The notes under the pieces are model-generated. The model ran no database searches and was not told the origin of the DNA. It was given only the letters and a program-made list of their open reading frames with translations. Source: Patescibacteria group bacterium (lineage in GTDB: Bacteria > Patescibacteriota > Minisyncoccia > Phycocordibacterales > CSBR16-193). Taken from it: DNA of 35,198 nucleotides. The translations under genes were made by a program, and so were the position numbers. The stretch is taken from positions 1 through 35,198 of the forward strand of contig JBNJGN010000004.1 in the NCBI GenBank assembly GCA_051747785.1, given 5' to 3'. This document shows, piece after piece, positions 23,734 through 34,811 of this stretch (the stretch's first letter is position 1; each line of letters opens with the position of its first letter).

Positions 23734-26031
23734 ATGGCAGAAAACAAAAAGAAATACGTGGACATATCCGATCCCAAGAACACTAAAGGATTTATAGAAA
23801 AGGTTCAAAAGCGTGATGGTACCGAGTGCTCCTTTGATCTAAACAGAATAGCTAATGCCATTTACAAGGCAATGATATCGGCTGACGAGGGTTCCGACGT
23901 TGAGGCCAGTATGGTTGCTAATAAAGTCTTTGCCGATTTGGTTCGCATAAGTAAAAAACATAAGAGTTTTGTTCCGACTGTTGAGGGAATACAGGACACT
24001 GTGGAGAAAGAGCTCATTGTCGGGGATTATGTAAATTCAGCTAAAAAATATATTCTCTATCGGGAAAAGAGAGCAAATCTTCGTAAGCAAGGAATTAAGG
24101 TTTCGCAAAAGGTTAAAAAGCTTACAGAAGAGAGTCGTAAGTATTTACCCAACCCTCTTTCGGAGTTTATATATTACAGAACCTATTCTAGATGGATGGA
24201 GGAAGAGGGAAGACGTGAGACTTGGGTAGAGACGGTTGATAGGTATATGAATTTCATGAAGGAGAATATCAAAGATGCTTTAAACAAAGAGGAATATGAA
24301 GAGATAAGAGAGGCCATTTTAAAACAGGAGATAATGCCTTCTATGCGCTTGCTATGGAGTGCCGGAAAAGCTGCTCGCAGAAGTAATGCCTGCGGTTATA
24401 ACTGTTCTTTTATCGCACCTAGAGAGCTCCGTGATTTTGGAGAGATAGTTTATCTATCAATGTGCGGATCAGGGGTCGGTTTTTCAGTTGAAAGTCAGCA
24501 CGTTGAAGCGTTGCCTCAGATACATAAACAGACCGGAGAGAAGTTATCTACTCACGTCATTGCTGACAGTAAAGAGGGTTGGGCAGATGCTTTGGTTATA
24601 GGTTTGGAAACTTGGTTTTCCGGAAAAGACATAGATTTCGATTATTCTCAAGTAAGACCTCAGGGATCTAAGCTTAAAACTATGGGTGGTAAAAGTTCTG
24701 GACCGGCGCCACTGAAGGATCTGTTAAGATTTACTAGAGAAAAAGTTCTCTCCCGACAGGGGAGGAGACTCTCAACCGTAGATACTCACGATATAATATG
24801 CAAGATAGGGCAGGTTGTTGTTGCCGGCGGAGTTCGTCGAAGTGCTCTCATTTCTCTTTCTGATCTCGATGACTCGGGTATGAGGGATTCTAAAAAAGGC
24901 CAGTTCTATGTAACTCATCCTCACCGTACTATGGCTAATAACTCGGCTGTTTATAACGAAAAACCCTCGGCAACTGACTTTCTTGATGAGTGGCTTGCTC
25001 TAGTAAGGTCTCAGTCTGGAGAGAGGGGTATATTCAATCGCGGGTCTTTGGAGAAACAGTTGCCCAAAAGACGCTGGCAGACTTTCTCGGGTTATATTGA
25101 CTACTCTGGTATAAATCCTTGCGGGGAAATAGTTCTTCGTTCCAAACAGTTTTGCAATCTATCTGAAGTAGTGGCCAGGGCGGGAGATACGAAAGAGGAT
25201 CTTCTAAGAAAGGTAAGATTAGCCGCTATGTTAGGAACGTATCAGTCTTCGCTTACTGATTTTGGTTATCTTTCAGAAGAGTGGAAAAAGAACTGTGAAG
25301 AGGAGCGTCTATTGGGAGTTTCTGTTACAGGGCAGTGGGATTCAGAGGAAGCCAGGAGTGCTGACATGCTCAAGTCTCTTAAAAAGGAGGCTGTAAAAGT
25401 AAATCGCGAATTTGCTAAGAGGCTTAATATAAATCCATCTACTGCTGTTACCTGTGTTAAGCCTTCCGGTACTGTCTCTCAGTTGGTTGATGCTTCTTCC
25501 GGAATGCATCCGAGATATGCCAAGTACTACATTCGTAGAATAAGGATATCTTCAACCGATTCTCTTTTTCATATGCTAAGGGACCAGGGTGTTCCTTTTC
25601 ATCCCGAGGTGGGTCAAAGTGTTGATAATGCTAATACCTATGTTCTGGAATTTCCGGTTAAAGCTCCTGAAGGGGCCATAACTAGCGGGGACTTAACTTC
25701 TCATGATCAATTGGAACACTGGAAGAAGGTGAAGCTGAATTACACCGAACATAACCCCTCTGTGACCGTTACAGTTGATGAGAATGAGTGGATCTCCACC
25801 GCTCATTGGATATATAATAACTGGGATATAGTAGGTGGGCTGTCTTTCTTGCCTAAAAGTGATCATGTCTATCAGTTAGCACCTTACGAAGAGATAGATG
25901 AGGAAAGATATAAAGAACTTTCAAAAAGGTTTACTGATATTGACTTCTCAAAGATCGTTACTTACGAAGGTGAAGATAATACCGAAGGAGCCAAAGAGTA
26001 CGCCTGTGTTGCCGGCGGGTGCCCGATTTAG
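23734..26031 (+). CDS. nrdJ: Class II (adenosylcobalamin-dependent) ribonucleotide reductase with N-terminal ATP cone
   Basis: ATP cone VQKRDG..FD..RI; RTYSR, NCSF, GGVRRSA, NPCGEI, FCNLSE, KPSGTVS, C-terminal CVAGGCPI; no beta subunit adjacent. Confidence 0.88.
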   Translation: MAENKKKYVDISDPKNTKGFIEKVQKRDGTECSFDLNRIANAIYKAMISADEGSDVEASMVANKVFADLVRISKKHKSFVPTVEGIQDTVEKELIVGDYVNSAKKYILYREKRANLRKQGIKVSQKVKKLTEESRKYLPNPLSEFIYYRTYSRWMEEEGRRETWVETVDRYMNFMKENIKDALNKEEYEEIREAILKQEIMPSMRLLWSAGKAARRSNACGYNCSFIAPRELRDFGEIVYLSMCGSGVGFSVESQHVEALPQIHKQTGEKLSTHVIADSKEGWADALVIGLETWFSGKDIDFDYSQVRPQGSKLKTMGGKSSGPAPLKDLLRFTREKVLSRQGRRLSTVDTHDIICKIGQVVVAGGVRRSALISLSDLDDSGMRDSKKGQFYVTHPHRTMANNSAVYNEKPSATDFLDEWLALVRSQSGERGIFNRGSLEKQLPKRRWQTFSGYIDYSGINPCGEIVLRSKQFCNLSEVVARAGDTKEDLLRKVRLAAMLGTYQSSLTDFGYLSEEWKKNCEEERLLGVSVTGQWDSEEARSADMLKSLKKEAVKVNREFAKRLNINPSTAVTCVKPSGTVSQLVDASSGMHPRYAKYYIRRIRISSTDSLFHMLRDQGVPFHPEVGQSVDNANTYVLEFPVKAPEGAITSGDLTSHDQLEHWKKVKLNYTEHNPSVTVTVDENEWISTAHWIYNNWDIVGGLSFLPKSDHVYQLAPYEEIDEERYKELSKRFTDIDFSKIVTYEGEDNTEGAKEYACVAGGCPI

Positions 26032-26054: not shown

Positions 26055-26084
26055 AGACCCCGTCTTTAGGCGGGGTTTTTCTTT
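26055..26084 (+). terminator. Intrinsic terminator after nrdJ
   Basis: ACCCCGTCT-tt-AGGCGGGGT stem followed by TTTTCTTT. Confidence 0.8.
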
Positions 26085-26121
26085 GCTTAAAGATCTCTAC
26101 ACTGTGATAAAATATCTAGAG

Positions 26122-27765
26122 ATGTTTAAACTGTTACAGAAATATTTTAAAAAGATAACTCTTTTAGTACCTGCTTTGGCGGTAATCTTTTCCTTATTGT
26201 TCCCTGTGTCCGTTTTTTCGGTTGAACCTGTTTATCATAACTTTTCCTTAACATATCCTATAGGCGAACTACAGCCGTCCGAAGGTGATATCATTATCCG
26301 TAACAGGTATAGCAACACTTTCCGGATATCCTCAATAGAGGATAGTGCCGACGTTTTTGGAGTTGTCGCTTCTGATGCGGCGTTGGTTTTTAGGACAGAA
26401 GACCCTGATTCGGTTCCTATAATGAGATTCGGGCAAACCGCCGTTAACGTTATATTAAAAAATGGTGATATAGAAAGAGGAGATAATATAACCACTTCGG
26501 AGGTGGCTGGTCATGGGCAGGCGCTTCAACCTTATCATAGGTATACTTTAGGCGTTGCTCTGGAGGGTTTAAGTGAAGAAGACGCCAGTGAGGAGGTGGT
26601 TACTCCGGACGGAGAGGTCTATCCCTCCGGGCAGGTAGTAGTGGACCTTAGGATAAGTTTTCATGGTTCGGGGATTGTAAATATCTCTCTGCAAGACATT
26701 CCTTCTGAAGCTGAACCACTTGAGGTTGGTGCTATGTTTCGTCAAAACTTTCAGACTATGCGCCGGTTAGGCCAGGAGGTGACGGAACAAACTCGCGATA
26801 TCTTGGAGACAGAAGCTGGATCCGTAGCTTCCAGGCTCATTGAAACAGGAGGGGCGGTTACGGGGGCCATGATATCCTTCGGTGCGCTTTTCTTAAGTCC
26901 GATAACTGTTTTTGAGGTTTTTGCTTTACCTTTTAGAGTATGGGCGCTGTTCCTTGCCCTGTTTGGTATTAAAAGAAGATCTAGACCATGGGGTGTGGTG
27001 TATGACAGCGTGACCAAGCAACCTATTGATCCGGCTTATGTAATGCTGGAAGATGATAAGGGAAATGAAGTAAAGATGTCTATAACGGACATTGACGGAC
27101 GTTATGGTTTCCTGGTGGAGCCTGGTAAGTATAAAATGATTGCTAACAAGACCAACTATATCTTTCCGTCTGAGAAGCTTAAAGATAGAAGGTCCGATGT
27201 TATCTATAACAATCTTTATTTCGGGGAGACCTTTGAGCTTAATGAGAAAAATGCCGTAATTGATAAGAACATTCCTATGGACCCACAGGATTTTGACTGG
27301 AATGAGTTTACCAAATTAAATAAAAAGATTCTGACCTATTATTCTTACGCTGATCTTTTCAAGGCTTTTATTTTTCAGTGGCTATTTTATACCGGTTTTA
27401 TTATTTCCTTAGTTTCCGTTTTTCTGGTTCCCGATACTTATAGCTACGTTATACTGGGTATATATCTTTTTCTTTTCTTTTTACGTATCGTAGGGCTCAA
27501 ACCCAGGCGCTATGGAAAGGTCGTGGAAAAGGAAACGAAAAACCCTCTGTCTTATGCTATTGTGCGCATATGCCTTAAAAGATCGGGAAGAGAGGTTTCT
27601 ACCTCTGTGTGTGATGCTTACGGGCGCTACTTCGCCCTTGCCAGTAATGGAGAGTATTACGTGAAAATAGACAAGAAAAAAGGAGAGGAGGATTACGAGA
27701 ATGTTTTCACTTCCGAGCCCTTCGAGGTGAAAGGGGGAGTAATAAGGAGAACTTTTAGGGTGTGA
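26122..27765 (+). CDS. Membrane protein: signal peptide, secreted beta domain, TM segments and two carboxypeptidase-regulatory-like beta-sandwich repeats
   Basis: Start 26122 preferred over TTG 26083 (TGaTAAAAT 8 nt upstream); N-domain paralogous to the next gene; repeats RPWGVVYDSVTKQPI...TDIDGRY and RRYGKVVEKETKNPL...CDAYGRY. Confidence 0.75.
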   Translation: MFKLLQKYFKKITLLVPALAVIFSLLFPVSVFSVEPVYHNFSLTYPIGELQPSEGDIIIRNRYSNTFRISSIEDSADVFGVVASDAALVFRTEDPDSVPIMRFGQTAVNVILKNGDIERGDNITTSEVAGHGQALQPYHRYTLGVALEGLSEEDASEEVVTPDGEVYPSGQVVVDLRISFHGSGIVNISLQDIPSEAEPLEVGAMFRQNFQTMRRLGQEVTEQTRDILETEAGSVASRLIETGGAVTGAMISFGALFLSPITVFEVFALPFRVWALFLALFGIKRRSRPWGVVYDSVTKQPIDPAYVMLEDDKGNEVKMSITDIDGRYGFLVEPGKYKMIANKTNYIFPSEKLKDRRSDVIYNNLYFGETFELNEKNAVIDKNIPMDPQDFDWNEFTKLNKKILTYYSYADLFKAFIFQWLFYTGFIISLVSVFLVPDTYSYVILGIYLFLFFLRIVGLKPRRYGKVVEKETKNPLSYAIVRICLKRSGREVSTSVCDAYGRYFALASNGEYYVKIDKKKGEEDYENVFTSEPFEVKGGVIRRTFRV

Positions 27766-27884
27766 TCTTATCTCTCAGAGTAATTTTCCCCGATTTACTT
27801 TATCCTTTTTATGTTAGTATGTTTATATGACCGGTGTATCGGTTGGTTTTGTGCATATTTCTTTTAAGATCCTTCCTTAATAAA

Positions 27885-28715
27885 ATGAGTTCACGTTTAT
27901 TGATCTTTATTCTTTCCTTTCTTTTGCTTGTAGCCTCGGGGGTTTTCTCTGATATTGCTTTAGCTCAGATAGGTCAGGGCATAGAGTCCGATGAAGGAGA
28001 TATATCTCCGGGAAGTATCATATCCAGAGACCCCAGAAGTAATTACTTTCATCTCTCTAGGGATGTGAGTGACCCCAATATATTTGGTGTTGTCGTGGAA
28101 AAACCTATTGCCAATATTCGTCCTGACGAGGAAAGTAATATATCGGTTTTAAGAACAGGCGAAGTAAGAGTTAGAGTTATCTTAAAAGAGGAGGGTATTG
28201 AAACAGGGGACTACATAACAACCTCGGAAGTTGAAGGATTGGGAATGCGCGCCAGCGATGAACATTCCAATGTTTTAGGAGTGGCTCTTGAGGACTTTAC
28301 CTCAGAGGACGCAGAGTCATCAGTTGAGCACCAAGAGCAAGAAGTGCCGGTAGGGCTAATATTGGTTGATCTTCAGATAGGGAGTCGGCAGAGGGAGGGG
28401 GGCTCTGTGCCTCCTGGAGAGGATAATAATGGTTTGACCCCTTTAGGGTCACAGGTTGAGCACTATTTGGCTATGATAGCTCGGTATCTGGCCGCGGCTT
28501 TGGTGGCGGTTTCGGCCCTCTATCTTTCTTTCAGGTTCTTTAAATCAAACGTGGCGGGAGGTTTATCTGCGCTGGGTCGCAATCCTATGGCGCGTCAGTC
28601 CATACAGAAGATGATGCTTTTTAATATGTTCTTGGTTATAGTTATAAGTGTGGGGGGTCTTCTTCTGTCTGCTCTGATCCTTCTCATTCCGGTTTTTATT
28701 AGCAGGATAATATGA
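27885..28715 (+). CDS. Secreted-domain / ATP synthase subunit c-like hairpin fusion protein
   Basis: Signal peptide ending ALA; C-terminal TM-GLSALGRNPMARQSIQ-TM resembles the c-subunit R(N/Q)P loop; lies directly before the b-like gene; ATG 27885 preferred over GTG 27834. Confidence 0.65.
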   Translation: MSSRLLIFILSFLLLVASGVFSDIALAQIGQGIESDEGDISPGSIISRDPRSNYFHLSRDVSDPNIFGVVVEKPIANIRPDEESNISVLRTGEVRVRVILKEEGIETGDYITTSEVEGLGMRASDEHSNVLGVALEDFTSEDAESSVEHQEQEVPVGLILVDLQIGSRQREGGSVPPGEDNNGLTPLGSQVEHYLAMIARYLAAALVAVSALYLSFRFFKSNVAGGLSALGRNPMARQSIQKMMLFNMFLVIVISVGGLLLSALILLIPVFISRII

Positions 28716-28759: not shown

Positions 28760-29731
28760 ATGTTTGAAATGTTTGAAGAAATAGATCCCTTTTTTATACT
28801 CCTAACTTCTCTTATCGCTGCGGTGATTTTGCTTTTGCCTACCGCTATTTGGCTCTTTATTCTTTTAAAAAAACAGAATAAAGAGTATAAAGAGGTAATA
28901 AGAGATGCTGACTCGCGTGCCGAGGATATAGTAAGTAAAGCCAAGACAAGATCAAGAGAGATAGTAACAGAGGCGGACAAGCAAGCCAGTCGTTACTTAT
29001 CTGAAAGAAAAACGGAAATGGATTCCATGCATACTGAACTTGTGGGACGGTTGGATAATTTAAAAGACGAAGCCCAAAAGAGCTTTTCCAAGAGTGTAGA
29101 AAAGGTTGATTCCTTTTCAGAAGAGATATCTGAGGAAGCCAAAAGAGAGATACGTTCATCTGTACAAAAAGCAAATACTTCTTTGGGTGAGGTTATAGAT
29201 GGTATGAAAGAGCAAATAGAAAAAGATATGAAGAAAACCAAAGATAAGATCCCGGAGATTGAAAAACAGATCAGGGATCTTGAGGCTCTGAATGAAAATG
29301 CCAAAAAAAGCTTTTCTGAAAGCTCTGAGAAATTTATTAAGATCTCCAATGAAGCATCAGAAGAGGCTCACGATCATTTAATCGCCTCCGCTAAAAAGGC
29401 GGATGAGCTCATGGAAAACTTTACAGGGGAAGCTCGAAAACAGATTAAGGAAGATATTACCAAGACTGCCGAGGAGATGTCTTCAAACAGAAAGGAAATG
29501 GTCCGCCGCTTCAAAGAAGTTCTCAATAGTGAAATGGAAGAAGCTAGAAAGGAGTTGCAAGACTATAGAAAAGACAGATTAAGAGTAGTAGATGAGCATA
29601 TTGTTACTTTGGTTGAGGAGACGGTGGCCATAGCTCTTAACACCGGACTTTCCAAAGATGACCACAGAGAGGCGGTAAAAAGTGCCTTGGAAGAAGCCAA
29701 AAAAAGAGGAGCTTTTGATAAATCCCGTTAA
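28760..29731 (+). CDS. ATP synthase subunit b-like protein, elongated
   Basis: Single N-terminal TM, long charged coiled coil, C-terminal IVTLVEETVAIALNTGLSKDDHREAVKSAL resembling the b C-terminus; position upstream of delta-like/alpha. Confidence 0.65.
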   Translation: MFEMFEEIDPFFILLTSLIAAVILLLPTAIWLFILLKKQNKEYKEVIRDADSRAEDIVSKAKTRSREIVTEADKQASRYLSERKTEMDSMHTELVGRLDNLKDEAQKSFSKSVEKVDSFSEEISEEAKREIRSSVQKANTSLGEVIDGMKEQIEKDMKKTKDKIPEIEKQIRDLEALNENAKKSFSESSEKFIKISNEASEEAHDHLIASAKKADELMENFTGEARKQIKEDITKTAEEMSSNRKEMVRRFKEVLNSEMEEARKELQDYRKDRLRVVDEHIVTLVEETVAIALNTGLSKDDHREAVKSALEEAKKRGAFDKSR

Positions 29732-29734
29732 TTT

Positions 29735-30262
29735 ATGGATCCTTTTGAGGTCATTTTCTCCAATACCTATACCTATGCGGACTTTCGATACCGTCTGTCT
29801 GTTCTGCGAGAGTTTACGGAGTATATTTTATACACTAAAGAGAAGGAGAGCCTTTCTATTATGGAGAAGTTTGATCGTTTTTCCGGGGAAAAGGGGATGA
29901 GCTACGAAGATACAAAATTTTTCAAGGAATGGGGAGAGGATGTCTTTCGTAAAGTAGCCTTTGGAGGTGATATATATAAGACTCTTGAGAACATGGAGCA
30001 AAGATTCAAAGAGAGCCCTCTTTTTATACTAAGAGTACCGGTTAGTTTTTCTAAAGAAGATGATAGGTACTTTGGGAAGTGGGTGAGAGAGAACGTTGAC
30101 AGTCGTGCTTTTTTAAAAATAAAAGTTGATGAAAGCGTAAATGCCGGTTGCGTTTTCAGCTGGAGTAACGATCAGTACAATATGAGTTTTGAAAGATTAA
30201 GGAAAGAAAGATACGATAAGATATCAGAACGGATCAGAGAGGTTTTAGATTCTAAAATGTAG
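29735..30262 (+). CDS. ATP synthase subunit delta/OSCP-like protein (divergent)
   Basis: 175 aa between b-like and alpha; C-terminal LKIKVDESVNAGCVFSWSNDQYNMS resembles the delta VDPSLIGG...D.S motif. Confidence 0.6.
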   Translation: MDPFEVIFSNTYTYADFRYRLSVLREFTEYILYTKEKESLSIMEKFDRFSGEKGMSYEDTKFFKEWGEDVFRKVAFGGDIYKTLENMEQRFKESPLFILRVPVSFSKEDDRYFGKWVRENVDSRAFLKIKVDESVNAGCVFSWSNDQYNMSFERLRKERYDKISERIREVLDSKM

Positions 30263-30308: not shown

Positions 30309-31805
30309 ATGAGAGAAAAGTTTGCGAGCAAAGAGGTCGGATATGTGACTCAGGTAAATAACTATCTTTTAACTATAAAAGGTCTGCCAAGCGTAAGAGT
30401 CAATGATATTATCGCTGACAGAAAGAATAGAAGGGCGGTTATTCATTCCCTGTACGATGACTCTGTTAGAGCTTTATCTTTAAGCAAGGAACCTGTTGAT
30501 CCCGGGGCGGAGTTTTTTCTAGATAGGGAAAGTGGGAGGATGAACATGGGCGATCACTTAAAGGGTAGTGTGGTTAACGCGTTAGGTAAAACTGTTGACT
30601 CCTCCGGAGGTAATGGGGTTTTGGGGGATAAAACTTCTCAGGAATTGGAGTTTGACGTGAAAGCCAAAAATATTGACTCCAGAGATTTTATAAAAGATCA
30701 ACTTGTCACCGGTTTTGCTCTTATAGATACGATAGTTCCGGTGGGTAAAGGTCAGCGTGAACTTGTATACGGTCCCATACATAGCGGTAAAAGCGAGTTT
30801 TTGCAAAGTATTGTAATAAACCAAAAGAAACAGAAGAATATATGTATTTATGCAGCTATAGGTAAACCGTCTATTTTTACCTCTCGATTGATCAAGGTAC
30901 TTAAAGACAATGACGCTCTTGATAACACCGTAATTCTTTCGGCTCTTTCTGATGAGCCTGCTCCTATGATAACCGTAGCACCCTCCACTGCTTTCCTTAT
31001 AGCGGAGCATTTCTGTTCCAAAGGTGAAGATGTTGTTTTAATACTGGATGACCTGGGAATACACGCCAAGTATATAAGAGAGTCAGCTCTCTTATCTGGG
31101 CAGTTCCCCGGAAGAGAGTCCTATCCGGGTGATATTTTTTATCAGCATGCTCACCTTATGGAAAGGAGTGGTAGTTTTAATGAAAAACAGGGCAATGGAA
31201 CTATAACTCTCTTTCCTGTTTTGCAGACGGATGTTGAGAGTTTTTCCAATATAATACCCACTAATCTTATGGCCTCTACTGATGGACATCTTTTCTTTTC
31301 AGCGGAGATGCATGCCGAAGGCTTTAAACCGGCGGTCTCTATATTGCAGTCTGTTACTCGAGTGGGACATATGACACATAATAACTTGCAAAGAGGTCTT
31401 TCTACTAAGCTTATGAATGTTCTATCGGAGTATCCTCGCCAACAGGAGTATAGTAGGTTCGGTACACAGATGAGTGAACACACTCGCGATATCCTTAAGA
31501 AGGGTAGAGTGATATATGAGCTCTTAAACCAAAACCACGGAGAGTTAATACCTCTTGGAACTCAGTTGGTACTTCTTTCGTTGGTTTTTACTTCATTTTT
31601 TGATGGCGATAAAAGAGATGTTGATTTTGTAAGGTTTGAACGTAAGAACTTGATAAAAGCCGCCAATGAAAGTGACATTCTTAAAAAGGCTAGAGAGCAG
31701 GCAGACTCGGGGGAGATCGGTGTTGAAGACTTTATTTCTCTCATAGAAGAGGGGGTCAAAGATCTGAGCGCTCTTTTTGATTCTAAAGGTAAAGATACAA
31801 GCTGA
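30309..31805 (+). CDS. atpA: F1 ATPase alpha subunit, divergent
   Basis: TGFALIDTIVPVGKGQRELVYG, CIYAAIG, LILDDL, PGRESYPGDIFY, IPTNLMASTDGHLF, arginine finger SVTRVG. Confidence 0.9.
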   Translation: MREKFASKEVGYVTQVNNYLLTIKGLPSVRVNDIIADRKNRRAVIHSLYDDSVRALSLSKEPVDPGAEFFLDRESGRMNMGDHLKGSVVNALGKTVDSSGGNGVLGDKTSQELEFDVKAKNIDSRDFIKDQLVTGFALIDTIVPVGKGQRELVYGPIHSGKSEFLQSIVINQKKQKNICIYAAIGKPSIFTSRLIKVLKDNDALDNTVILSALSDEPAPMITVAPSTAFLIAEHFCSKGEDVVLILDDLGIHAKYIRESALLSGQFPGRESYPGDIFYQHAHLMERSGSFNEKQGNGTITLFPVLQTDVESFSNIIPTNLMASTDGHLFFSAEMHAEGFKPAVSILQSVTRVGHMTHNNLQRGLSTKLMNVLSEYPRQQEYSRFGTQMSEHTRDILKKGRVIYELLNQNHGELIPLGTQLVLLSLVFTSFFDGDKRDVDFVRFERKNLIKAANESDILKKAREQADSGEIGVEDFISLIEEGVKDLSALFDSKGKDTS

Positions 31806-31834: not shown

Positions 31835-34074
<2,240 letters not shown>

Positions 34075-34529: not shown

Positions 34530-34811
34530 CTAAACATTTGCATATATTTTTACCTCATTCTCTTTGGCATATAATAGAGAACGGGGAAAGGTGAACTCCT
34601 TCTGTGTTTTGCTTTCTGTTTTAACTACTATAGGGGTGTCTTTTAGGATCGTTATGAAGTTGGCGTGTTGGGGAAGAATGTCAAAGACCCCGTTAGTATT
34701 CTCGGCTGAAATGGATAGGGCGTAACCTTCCCATACTACTTCGCCTAAAGAGATTATACGGACATTTAAGAGATCTTGATTCTTTTCTGTGGCCTCTTCA
34801 TTTTTATTCAT
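34530..34811 (-). CDS. atpC: F1 ATPase epsilon subunit, N-terminal beta-sandwich only
   Basis: LNVRIIS..EVVWEG.A.SIS...NGVFDILPQHANFITIL matches the epsilon G.LGILP.H motif; no C-terminal helical hairpin. Confidence 0.8.
   Translation of the reverse strand: MNKNEEATEKNQDLLNVRIISLGEVVWEGYALSISAENTNGVFDILPQHANFITILKDTPIVVKTESKTQKEFTFPRSLLYAKENEVKIYANV

Follow-up and report, generated by a model that had tools for sequence, protein, structure and literature searches.

The stretch of DNA analysed here, called the window below, comprises 35,198 nucleotides of the genome of a Patescibacteria group bacterium (contig JBNJGN010000004.1, positions 1 to 35,198) and carries a cluster of genes for an F1-like ATPase, headed by the gene of a membrane protein that we call X. 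The X open reading frame (ORF) occupies 27834..28715 on the forward strand, the strand of all window features given here except the gene for subunit epsilon, and from its ATG at 27885, a start that agrees with that of the homologues, it encodes 276 amino acids (aa). Downstream lie genes for b-like and delta-like stalk proteins and for the F1 subunits alpha, gamma and beta, with a convergent gene for a short epsilon. The C-terminal hairpin of X is homologous to subunit c of F-type ATP synthases and has lost its ion-binding acid, the order of the cluster is conserved across Patescibacteria, X occurs together with an extra alpha/beta pair, and searches for subunit a with it came back empty. We propose that X may form a non-conducting membrane base on which an F1-like head acts mechanically.

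X is most likely a pre-protein of four parts, namely a Sec-type signal peptide, an external beta domain of about 140 aa, a flexible linker and a C-terminal two-helix hairpin. The AlphaFold2 (AF2) model, computed from a 79-sequence alignment, has a predicted local distance difference test score (pLDDT) of 87.8 and a predicted template-modelling score (pTM) of 0.63, and shows a helix at residues 2-20, a beta domain at 29-167, a disordered stretch at 173-184 and helices at 186-232 and 234-275; hydropathy marks the segments 6-24, 194-212 and 250-268. The hydrophobic N-terminal helix (residues 1-27, 27885..27965) ends in an A-x-A|Q motif (IALA|QIG), of which A27 and Q28 are at least 90% conserved across the homologue alignments, and it is likely a Sec signal peptide cleaved at the A-x-A site, as sequence, AF2 model and hydropathy suggest. 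It is followed by the external beta domain (residues 28-167, 27966..28385; pLDDT mostly >90) and by a low-complexity linker (residues 168-185, 28386..28439) that is variable in the homologue alignments and predicted to be disordered (pLDDT <50 at 173-184). The hairpin itself consists of helix 1 (residues 186-231, 28440..28577), the loop motif R232-N233-P234 (28578-28586) and helix 2 (residues 235-276 with the stop codon, 28587..28715). X ends in ...GGLSALGRNPMARQSIQKMMLFNMFLVIVISVGGLLLSALILLIPVFISRII, and its last 45 residues, from R232 to the end, read RNPMARQSIQKMMLFNMFLVIVISVGGLLLSALILLIPVFISRII. The termini of subunit c face the outside of the cell, and a comparable topology is predicted for X, whose signal peptide would place the beta domain outside and whose helix 1 would run from the outside to the cytoplasm.

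The relationship of the hairpin to subunit c was examined in both directions. A hidden Markov model (HMM) was built from 28 canonical Patescibacteria c subunits, whose loop reads EAIGRNPEA, and searched against 6,394 six-frame ORFs from the window's own genome and 85 loci. It matched 80/80 X-family members and two further copies ahead of any unrelated ORF, the first of which appeared at E = 0.13. Its top matches were four long fusion proteins (E from 8e-11 to 2e-9); the X of the window was found with E = 8e-4 (18.0 bits), and the V-type K subunit of the same genome scored worse (E = 0.015). In the reverse search, the X-family profile was run over 61 Patescibacteria genomes and matched c ORFs of 73-98 aa in about 25 of them, through its hairpin part and with E-values from 6.8e-10 to 9e-4. 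Direct alignment of the hairpin and c profiles with hhalign gave a probability of 97.0% (E = 1.1e-10, 47 columns), against 0.4% for the reversed c profile and at most 1.4% for 20 column shuffles.

Structural databases return the same family. All seven matches at E<=10 of a profile of 16 X homologues against the Protein Data Bank (PDB) were ATP synthase c subunits (best E = 0.002), and a profile of the hairpin only, from 84 sequences, gave 24 matches at E<=10, of which 19 were c subunits, including the entire top 15 (best E = 4.2e-6); both helices were aligned with c, for instance with residues 5-77 of 2wie_A, and the remaining five matches, all at E>=0.3, were filamentous-phage coat proteins and one reductase. 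The AF2 model of the hairpin alone has a pLDDT of 91.3, and among its Foldseek matches listed (ranks 1-49) all were F-type c chains, with target-normalised template-modelling scores up to 0.82 and root-mean-square deviations of 1.7-2.2 Å; the Foldseek E-values, from 0.045 up, are weak, which is to be expected of a 92-residue query. Because the profile searches both ways, hhalign, the PDB profile matches and Foldseek all point to c, the hairpin is almost certainly a true, diverged homologue of F-type subunit c. A sequence-only reading of the window had already described a subunit c-like C-terminal hairpin behind a signal peptide and an external domain, and its description holds up: the profile and structure comparisons with the ATP-synt_C family find the c similarity, though the curated Pfam model itself misses the X hairpin (an X paralogue reaches 17.1 bits with it), and the N-terminal part looks like a signal peptide and an external domain by AF2, hydropathy and the A-x-A|Q motif.

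The details read from the letters were also found in place, with RNP at 28578-28586, Ile252 (28638-28640) at the twentieth position after the loop arginine (R+20), where hhalign places the Glu of c, AAALVAVSA in helix 1 instead of GxGxGxG, and neither Asp nor Glu in helix 2, since none occurs after R237. The expectation that homologues would keep the loop and consistently lack the acid was borne out as well. The GRNP motif is present in 16/16 homologues found by word search and in 80/80 loci, the latter count being circular since the loci were picked by the pattern [SE][AS][LI]GRNP[LM]A[RK]; in seven homologues that a pattern-free profile search retrieved, RNP is kept in 7/7, with the preceding residue Gly in five and Ser in two. 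In the homologue alignments RNP shows no variation, and it lines up with the RNP/RQP of c subunits. At R+20, the 80 X-family sequences have V (22), A (19), I (18), L (7), G (5), F (3), T (2), S (2) and M (1), with one masked, so that none of the 79 readable sequences has Asp or Glu there. Acidic residues past the loop are otherwise found near the loop only (E at R+9 in four sequences and at R+6 in one), with a further exception in one frame-broken, N-masked record, and a diverged member (L151) has a Glu at R+14. Within helix 2, Asn247 (R+15, 28623-28625) is nearly invariant, being at least 90% conserved in the homologue alignments. The C-terminus lies 37 residues past the loop Arg in most family members and 45 past it in the window's clade.

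Compared with F-type subunit c (PF00137; for example, Acetobacterium woodii c2, 4bem_A, Spirulina c, 2wie_A, and Chloroflexus c, 9itt), X thus shares a two-helix hairpin of the same length, an EAIGRNP-type cytoplasmic loop, profile and fold similarity and a topology compatible with an outside N-terminus. It differs in having no carboxylate in helix 2 and no GxGxGxG in helix 1, in falling below the Pfam threshold, in carrying about 185 aa of signal peptide, domain and linker ahead of the hairpin, and in being encoded with its own alpha/gamma/beta set and with no adjacent subunit a.

The external domain of X resembles proteins that decorate phage capsids. With the beta domain as query, Foldseek matched 26 PDB entries at E<=0.001, the lowest E being 4e-5, with a probability of 1.00 and target-normalised template-modelling scores of 0.41-0.55; those listed are either phage capsid decoration proteins (8pkh, 8hdt_G, 9kzj_I, 5wk1_K and 7kmx_a) or the phi29 gp8.5 base and a gp12 C-terminal fragment. 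The Pfam family XM1_gp53_minor_capsid (PF23982) matches 5/16 X homologues (best E = 4.6e-6), and the window's own X has no significant Pfam match. The decoration or cement proteins of phages TW1 (5wk1_K), Pam3 (8hdt_G), BB1 (8pkh) and XM1 (gp53, 7kmx_a) have the same fold as the external domain, whereas X is a cellular membrane protein and not part of a virion, and identity to them is only 10-17%. The N-domain of X is also found alone within many giant ORFs of up to 3,355 aa. In the ESM Atlas, the three nearest clusters shown and 29/30 matches are clusters of "hypothetical protein", with no common Pfam family.

The hairpin is not confined to X. Acid-less GRNP hairpins were also found fused to invasin-like Ig domains in two proteins of 629 aa (L133 1872-3761 and L135 1186-3075), to a propeller of the NHL/lactonase type in a protein of 497 aa (L153 359-1852, reverse strand) and to two giants of 2,496 aa (L134 9433-16923, reverse strand) and 2,571 aa (L136 2400-10115). 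At their C-termini, both 629-aa fusions and the two giants have a helix 1 rich in Gly, then the GRNP loop and a helix 2 free of acidic residues, and the Pfam ATP-synt_C model, with a cut-off of 24 bits, recognises the C-termini of three of them (28.9 and 24.1 bits for the 629-aa proteins, 26.5 for the 2,496-aa one) and gives 21.5 bits, below the cut-off, for the 2,571-aa fusion. The gene of the latter is followed on the same strand by homologues of the alpha, gamma and beta genes of the window, and the 2,496-aa and 497-aa fusions lie upstream of an extra alpha/beta pair. A search with the hairpin profile among longer proteins yielded 105 proteins at E<=0.001, most of them X-like (about 208-317 aa), and a group of about 612-760 aa that bears the domains Big_1 and Invasin_D3. 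In one source, several of these already go under the name "F0F1-type ATP synthase membrane subunit c", and one is called "adhesin/invasin". The sequence-only reading, which had the hairpin of X itself right and whose further proposal, gamma/epsilon docking and a ring in which each protomer displays an external domain, is more tentative, missed both that the same acid-less hairpin anchors different passengers elsewhere and that the gene sits in a second F1-like cluster that has no subunit a.

Behind X, the cluster of the window starts with a b-like peripheral-stalk protein of 323 aa (28760..29731), which has one N-terminal transmembrane (TM) helix (hydropathy 18-36), a long helical remainder and a conserved position in the cluster; a profile of six such sequences weakly matches ATP synthase b (6n2d_b2, E = 8.5e-4) among other coiled coils. 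The next gene encodes a delta/OSCP-like protein of 175 aa (29735..30262), an assignment based on profiles, since there is no Pfam match; delta/OSCP chains make up 21/28 PDB matches of a seven-sequence profile (best E = 7.6e-5). The F1-like subunits are alpha (30309..31805; PF00006, 1.8e-55, and PF00306), gamma (31835..32668; PF00231, 2.5e-22) and the catalytic beta (32656..34074; PF00006, 2.1e-64, and its place in the tree described below). The epsilon gene (34530..34811, reverse strand) encodes 93 aa that comprise the beta-sandwich only (PF02823 over residues 15-92). The C-terminal helices of epsilon are the part linked to inhibition of hydrolysis, and because these are gone, the short epsilon fits a hydrolytic enzyme. 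Its gene is on the opposite strand and convergent with beta in the window's clade, also in L004-L008, and follows beta on the same strand in other clades; L008 has two epsilon matches and a split gamma.

Subunit a (PF00119) is absent from the window's own genome, and the sole canonical ATP-synt_C match of this genome lies on a 2.8-kb contig (C53), discussed below. Upstream of X, a 560-aa accessory ORF (26083..27765) encodes a signal-like helix, a beta domain paralogous to that of X (40% identity over 131 aa), two pairs of hydrophobic segments and a CarboxypepD_reg-type domain in two matched stretches. As a separate upstream gene it is found only in the window's clade (L004-L007), and it was rejected as a replacement of subunit a, since it is limited to this one clade and is matched by neither the a nor the c HMM. 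Ahead of the cluster lies a 765-aa ORF (23734-26031), named ribonucleotide-reductase-like from its sequence by eye, and the order of this ORF, the 560-aa ORF and X recurs in L004-L007.

A scan of species-representative genomes yielded 172 relatives of X confirmed by tblastn, of which 80 loci were kept. They show a conserved order X-b-delta-alpha-gamma-beta-epsilon, with X first and with neither subunit a nor a canonical c. An alpha gene is found downstream of X on the same strand in 62/67 loci with at least 6 kb of flank (within 2 kb in 46, at 2-4 kb in 14 and further away in two), and this synteny holds at only about 30% sequence identity. When the ORFs between X and alpha were read in six loci, the interval contained only b-like and delta-like genes, plus a gpmI-like insert in two. 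An HMM for subunit a, built from five Patescibacteria sequences and E. coli atpB, found nothing in 85 loci (+/-10 kb) or in the window's own genome (best E = 0.47). The possibility that X is simply the first gene ahead of a normal a-c-b operon was rejected, as there is no a or c between X and b. The phosphoglycerate-mutase-like gene (564-589 aa) lies directly after X in Woesebacteria-type and Chisholmbacteria loci (L033 10665-12359, L039 10636-12405 and L089 1-1482, reverse strand), in L033 and L039 between X and the b-like gene. Most of the records that bear the cluster have titles naming Patescibacteria lineages. Many, however, are "TPA_asm" entries titled Gammaproteobacteria or Pseudomonadales, and one is titled Nanoarchaeia (L010, L014, L015, L018 and others; L069); these latter titles look unreliable, because the alpha/beta proteins of these records sit among Patescibacteria ones in the tree.

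To judge by gene content and sequence, the X cluster is a second F-type-like ATPase, distinct from the ordinary F-type or V/A-type ATP synthase of the cell and usually coexisting with it. In four genomes with X (G001, G002, G004 and G005), a canonical a gene and a canonical c gene stand side by side away from the X cluster and come with a separate alpha/beta set, and in a fifth (G003) neither a nor c was matched. Besides its X cluster, the Gottesmanbacteria genome G001 carries two canonical sets of the form a-c...alpha...beta, and a TAA stop interrupts alpha in one of them (G001:C2:941976-942630). A complete V/A-type operon (G-like, I, double-hairpin K, E, C, F, A, B, D) is present in the closest relative, G006, whose X shows 89% identity. 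A second alpha/beta pair and a double-hairpin V-type c are found in G007 and G010, and in G008 and G009 a second alpha/beta pair lies elsewhere, next to a c match in G009 only, G008 having no PF00137 match. Two genomes of high completeness, G036 (100%) and G067 (97%), have the X cluster alone, with no PF00137 match.

The situation in the window's organism is probably that of its closest relative. Contig C53 (L001 1-1764) contains the last part of a gene for V-type subunit I, with 89% identity to its counterpart in G006, and then the start of a K/c proteolipid gene that runs off the contig, and no V-type A/B genes are present in the assembly (54 contigs, 94% completeness); the V/A-type operon is thus probably partly assembled, with its A/B genes unassembled. 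The I/K genes of C53 and the presence of only two alpha/beta genes in the assembly had raised the possibility of a chimera, with the F1 head on a V-type membrane sector, which was rejected because G006 has a complete V/A-type operon beside its X cluster and because subunit I of G006 and that on C53 share 89% identity.

The coexistence of X with an extra alpha/beta pair was also followed in an evenly drawn sample of 61 Patescibacteria genomes, whose counts describe a pattern and are not a test, related genomes not being independent. A hairpin behind a longer N-terminal part was found in 13 of these genomes, as a full-length X in seven of the 13, and the fusion lies on the same contig and strand as an X-type alpha/beta pair in 10/13. 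Every one of the nine genomes with at least four strong alpha/beta matches carries a hairpin fusion, and the number of matches stays at three or fewer in all 48 genomes that lack a fusion. The beta subunit of the window is about 40% identical to canonical Patescibacteria beta and 39% identical to that of E. coli. In a quick maximum-likelihood tree of 63 rows, with 35/62 cluster betas drawn at random plus that of the window, alpha as outgroup and E. coli as the single reference from outside the phylum, the cluster betas form one clade (SH-aLRT 98) apart from the canonical ones, and six canonical Patescibacteria betas group with E. coli (SH-aLRT 94).

In canonical enzymes it is through its R(Q/N)P loop that c meets gamma and epsilon, and ion translocation requires the c carboxylate together with subunit a. 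We propose that X would oligomerise into a c-ring-like, non-conducting membrane base, with gamma and epsilon of the F1-like head docking on its GRNP loops, a contact suggested by the conservation of this motif and by synteny. Since neither a channel subunit nor a carboxylate is present, the complex would move no ions, and because it could not do so, ATP hydrolysis would drive X instead, turning X and the tethered external domains, or exerting torque on them, against the b/delta stalk. The outcome would be a mechanical ATPase aimed at the cell surface, akin to the F1-like X0 ATPases of mycoplasmas. We give this mechanism as a whole, with its non-conducting base, the gamma/epsilon docking and the ATP-driven external domains, a probability of about 0.5. 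Its parts differ in strength: that X belongs to the F1-like complex is probable, and we hold it with good confidence, whereas the rotation of X as a ring is put forward tentatively, at odds a little short of even. The most far-reaching version, an undescribed Patescibacteria rotary machine in which an F1-like ATPase with its own stalk turns a carboxylate-free, c-derived ring, each hairpin bearing an adhesin-type domain (decoration-like, invasin-like, propeller or giant), and so spins or cranks surface structures by ATP hydrolysed inside the cell, is doubtful.

Several observations weigh against the proposed mechanism. The curated Pfam ATP-synt_C model matches neither whole X nor its last 89 aa, even at E<=10, and the family consensus of helix 1 (RYIxAxLVxxxSFxxGF) is devoid of the Gly-rich packing motif of c-rings. 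A small ring could hardly accommodate a passenger of 2,500 aa on each of its protomers, and without subunit a there is no membrane stator, only the single TM helix of the b stalk to resist torque. The synteny has exceptions, as no alpha follows X in five of the 67 loci (L015, L018, L035, L046 and L065); in L015 and L018, b and delta lie 4-6 kb downstream of X, with alpha past the end of the locus, and in L046 alpha-gamma-beta-epsilon lie upstream of X. Two genomes of the phylum sample (G038 and G065) encode invasin-like hairpin proteins on contigs other than that of the extra alpha/beta pair, and a 99% complete genome (G040) has a diverged X with an SRNP loop (G040:C5:10983-11699, L150) and yet no alpha/beta at E<=1e-40 and no PF00137 match, so that X can evidently persist without the ATPase. 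A prediction of the complex of four copies of X residues 183-276 gave a score of 0.13, against a mark of 0.42, which speaks neither for nor against a ring.

X could instead be part of the F1-like complex and not its rotor, namely a static anchor or an assembly factor whose hairpin holds gamma/epsilon or templates assembly like AtpI/UncI, with the external domain fixing the complex to the wall or to a partner cell and ATP hydrolysis serving another output. X holds the first operon position, which is the place of atpI in E. coli, its helix 1 has no ring-packing Gly motif, the complex has no subunit a as membrane stator, and phage decoration proteins bind surfaces with domains of the same type as the external one. 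AtpI-type factors, however, are small polytopic proteins without a c-like loop. No part of X is more conserved than the loop that c uses to meet gamma and epsilon. The ATPase would, moreover, be blocked by a static plug on gamma/epsilon, and yet the catalytic beta is well conserved. We regard this explanation as unlikely.

Another alternative disconnects X from the ATPase. The acid-less hairpin would be a mere reusable membrane anchor for surface and adhesin proteins, and its adjacency to ATPase genes a matter of co-regulation or history with no physical contact. The diversity of the passengers (Big_1/Invasin_D3 proteins of about 612-760 aa, the 497-aa NHL/lactonase-type propeller and the giants of 2,496 and 2,571 aa) speaks for this, as do the X of G040 without alpha/beta and the hairpin proteins of G038 and G065 that are not beside alpha/beta genes. 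Co-regulation or history would nevertheless have to explain why the synteny is kept in 62/67 loci at about 30% identity, why 9/9 sampled genomes with two alpha/beta pairs carry a fusion while 0/48 fusion-free genomes have two pairs, and why three alternative passengers (in G019, G015 and G029) also lie upstream of an extra alpha/beta pair; a simple anchor would not need an invariant cytoplasmic GRNP loop either. This explanation is rated as improbable.

It is also conceivable that X is a minority protomer in a canonical ring, of F-type c or V-type K, which it would decorate with its external domain. Rings with carboxylate-free hairpins are known, and A. woodii c1 (4bem_J), which has lost one ion site, is among the PDB matches; most genomes with X also have a canonical enzyme into which it could insert. 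Such a role would be difficult to reconcile with the genomes that have an X cluster and no PF00137 match (G036 and G067) or neither an a nor a c match (G003), with the window's lineage, which has a V-type K and not an F-type c, and with the fact that X travels with its own alpha/gamma/beta set and not with a-c, all of which make it very unlikely. Least probable of all, and remote in our view, is a complex that still moves ions by means of the helix 2 membrane residue N247, with its conservation of at least 90%, together with a channel partner that has escaped recognition, since, despite the Glu at R+14 of the diverged L151, there is no carboxylate at the canonical position in 79 readable sequences, no a-like ORF within +/-10 kb in 85 loci, and an extra multi-TM ORF in the window's clade only.

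If X does form an ATP-driven, non-conducting base, the closest functional parallel would be the F1-like X0 ATPases of mycoplasmas. The Type 2/3 F1-like X0 ATPases are reported to have an extra alpha/beta/gamma/epsilon set beside a true synthase and no ion-channel subunit, and their Protein 5 (MSC_0620/MMCAP2_0577) starts with a signal peptide, continues with a large ectodomain and ends in two TM helices with a short connecting loop (PMC3369863; PMC12994834). They have been proposed to be ATP-hydrolysing surface machines, involved in gliding and in the antibody cleavage of MIB-MIP (PMC3369863; PMC12994834; 10.1101/2024.06.11.597861). The X cluster is like these in being an extra F1 set beside a genuine rotary synthase with no ion-channel subunit, and the architecture of X matches the one described for Protein 5. 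The mycoplasma clusters are described there as having a 12-TM Protein 1, a cytosolic Protein 2 and no recognisable a, b, c or delta, whereas the X cluster keeps b-like and delta-like genes and its membrane protein is derived from c. No 12-TM ORF was found between X and alpha in the six loci read, and the hairpin-profile search among longer proteins returned no protein with a mycoplasma name. The two machines may share an origin or a logic, and the phosphoglycerate-mutase-like gene adjacent to X recalls the glycolytic PGK reported in the F1-like motor chain of Mycoplasma mobile.

Two further systems offer partial parallels. The X cluster differs from the N-ATPase, for which a working a/c membrane sector is presumably implied. 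Both are extra F-type operons beside the main enzyme, the N-ATPase being described as an ion (Na+) translocating F1Fo form (PMC2881411). Rotor rings that include carboxylate-free hairpins (A. woodii c1, 4bem_J, and the duplicated V-type proteolipids; PMC9171764) indicate that a functional rotor tolerates a c hairpin that lacks an ion site, whereas in these rings other hairpins keep the site and the channel subunit is present, and in the X family no member has the site and there is no subunit a nearby.

We class the X cluster as a rotary F-type ATPase derivative. The literature searched, so far as its text was accessible, contains no description of the cluster or of the fusion, but the supplementary figure S3 of one 2026 preprint may bear on priority (10.64898/2026.10.01.756066). 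The methods of this preprint examined "unusual genomic neighborhoods" of beta homologues in CPR (Candidate Phyla Radiation) bacteria, and its available text gives no result on them (10.64898/2026.10.01.756066). Mahendrarajah et al. report that 30% of the sampled CPR have no genes for the canonical complex, and mention "minimal complexes" (PMC10656485). The available text of two other papers (PMC10633639 and PMC8407418) does not describe the cluster or the fusion.

The X cluster bears on how the energy metabolism of these bacteria is read from genomes. Surveys count its alpha, beta, gamma and epsilon genes as F-type ATP synthase, often as an "incomplete" one, whereas the cluster as encoded could not translocate ions, and it is the sole rotary ATPase found in some complete or near-complete genomes (G036 and G067, and G003, which has no a or c match). 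Reconstructions of energy metabolism would therefore change for a large part of the Patescibacteria. The cluster would also represent an evolutionary intermediate between a proton-driven rotor and an ATP-driven surface machine, in which c is still recognisable, the acid has been lost, subunit a is gone and passengers have been added; for the F1-like X0 ATPases of mycoplasmas this conversion could not be followed, since no homologues of their membrane parts are detectable. Finally, these findings suggest that episymbiotic bacteria have a family of adhesin-like proteins on their surface that may be driven mechanically, and, if the most far-reaching version of the mechanism were true, the X complex would provide a transmembrane mechanical drive for attachment to, movement on, or attack of host cells.

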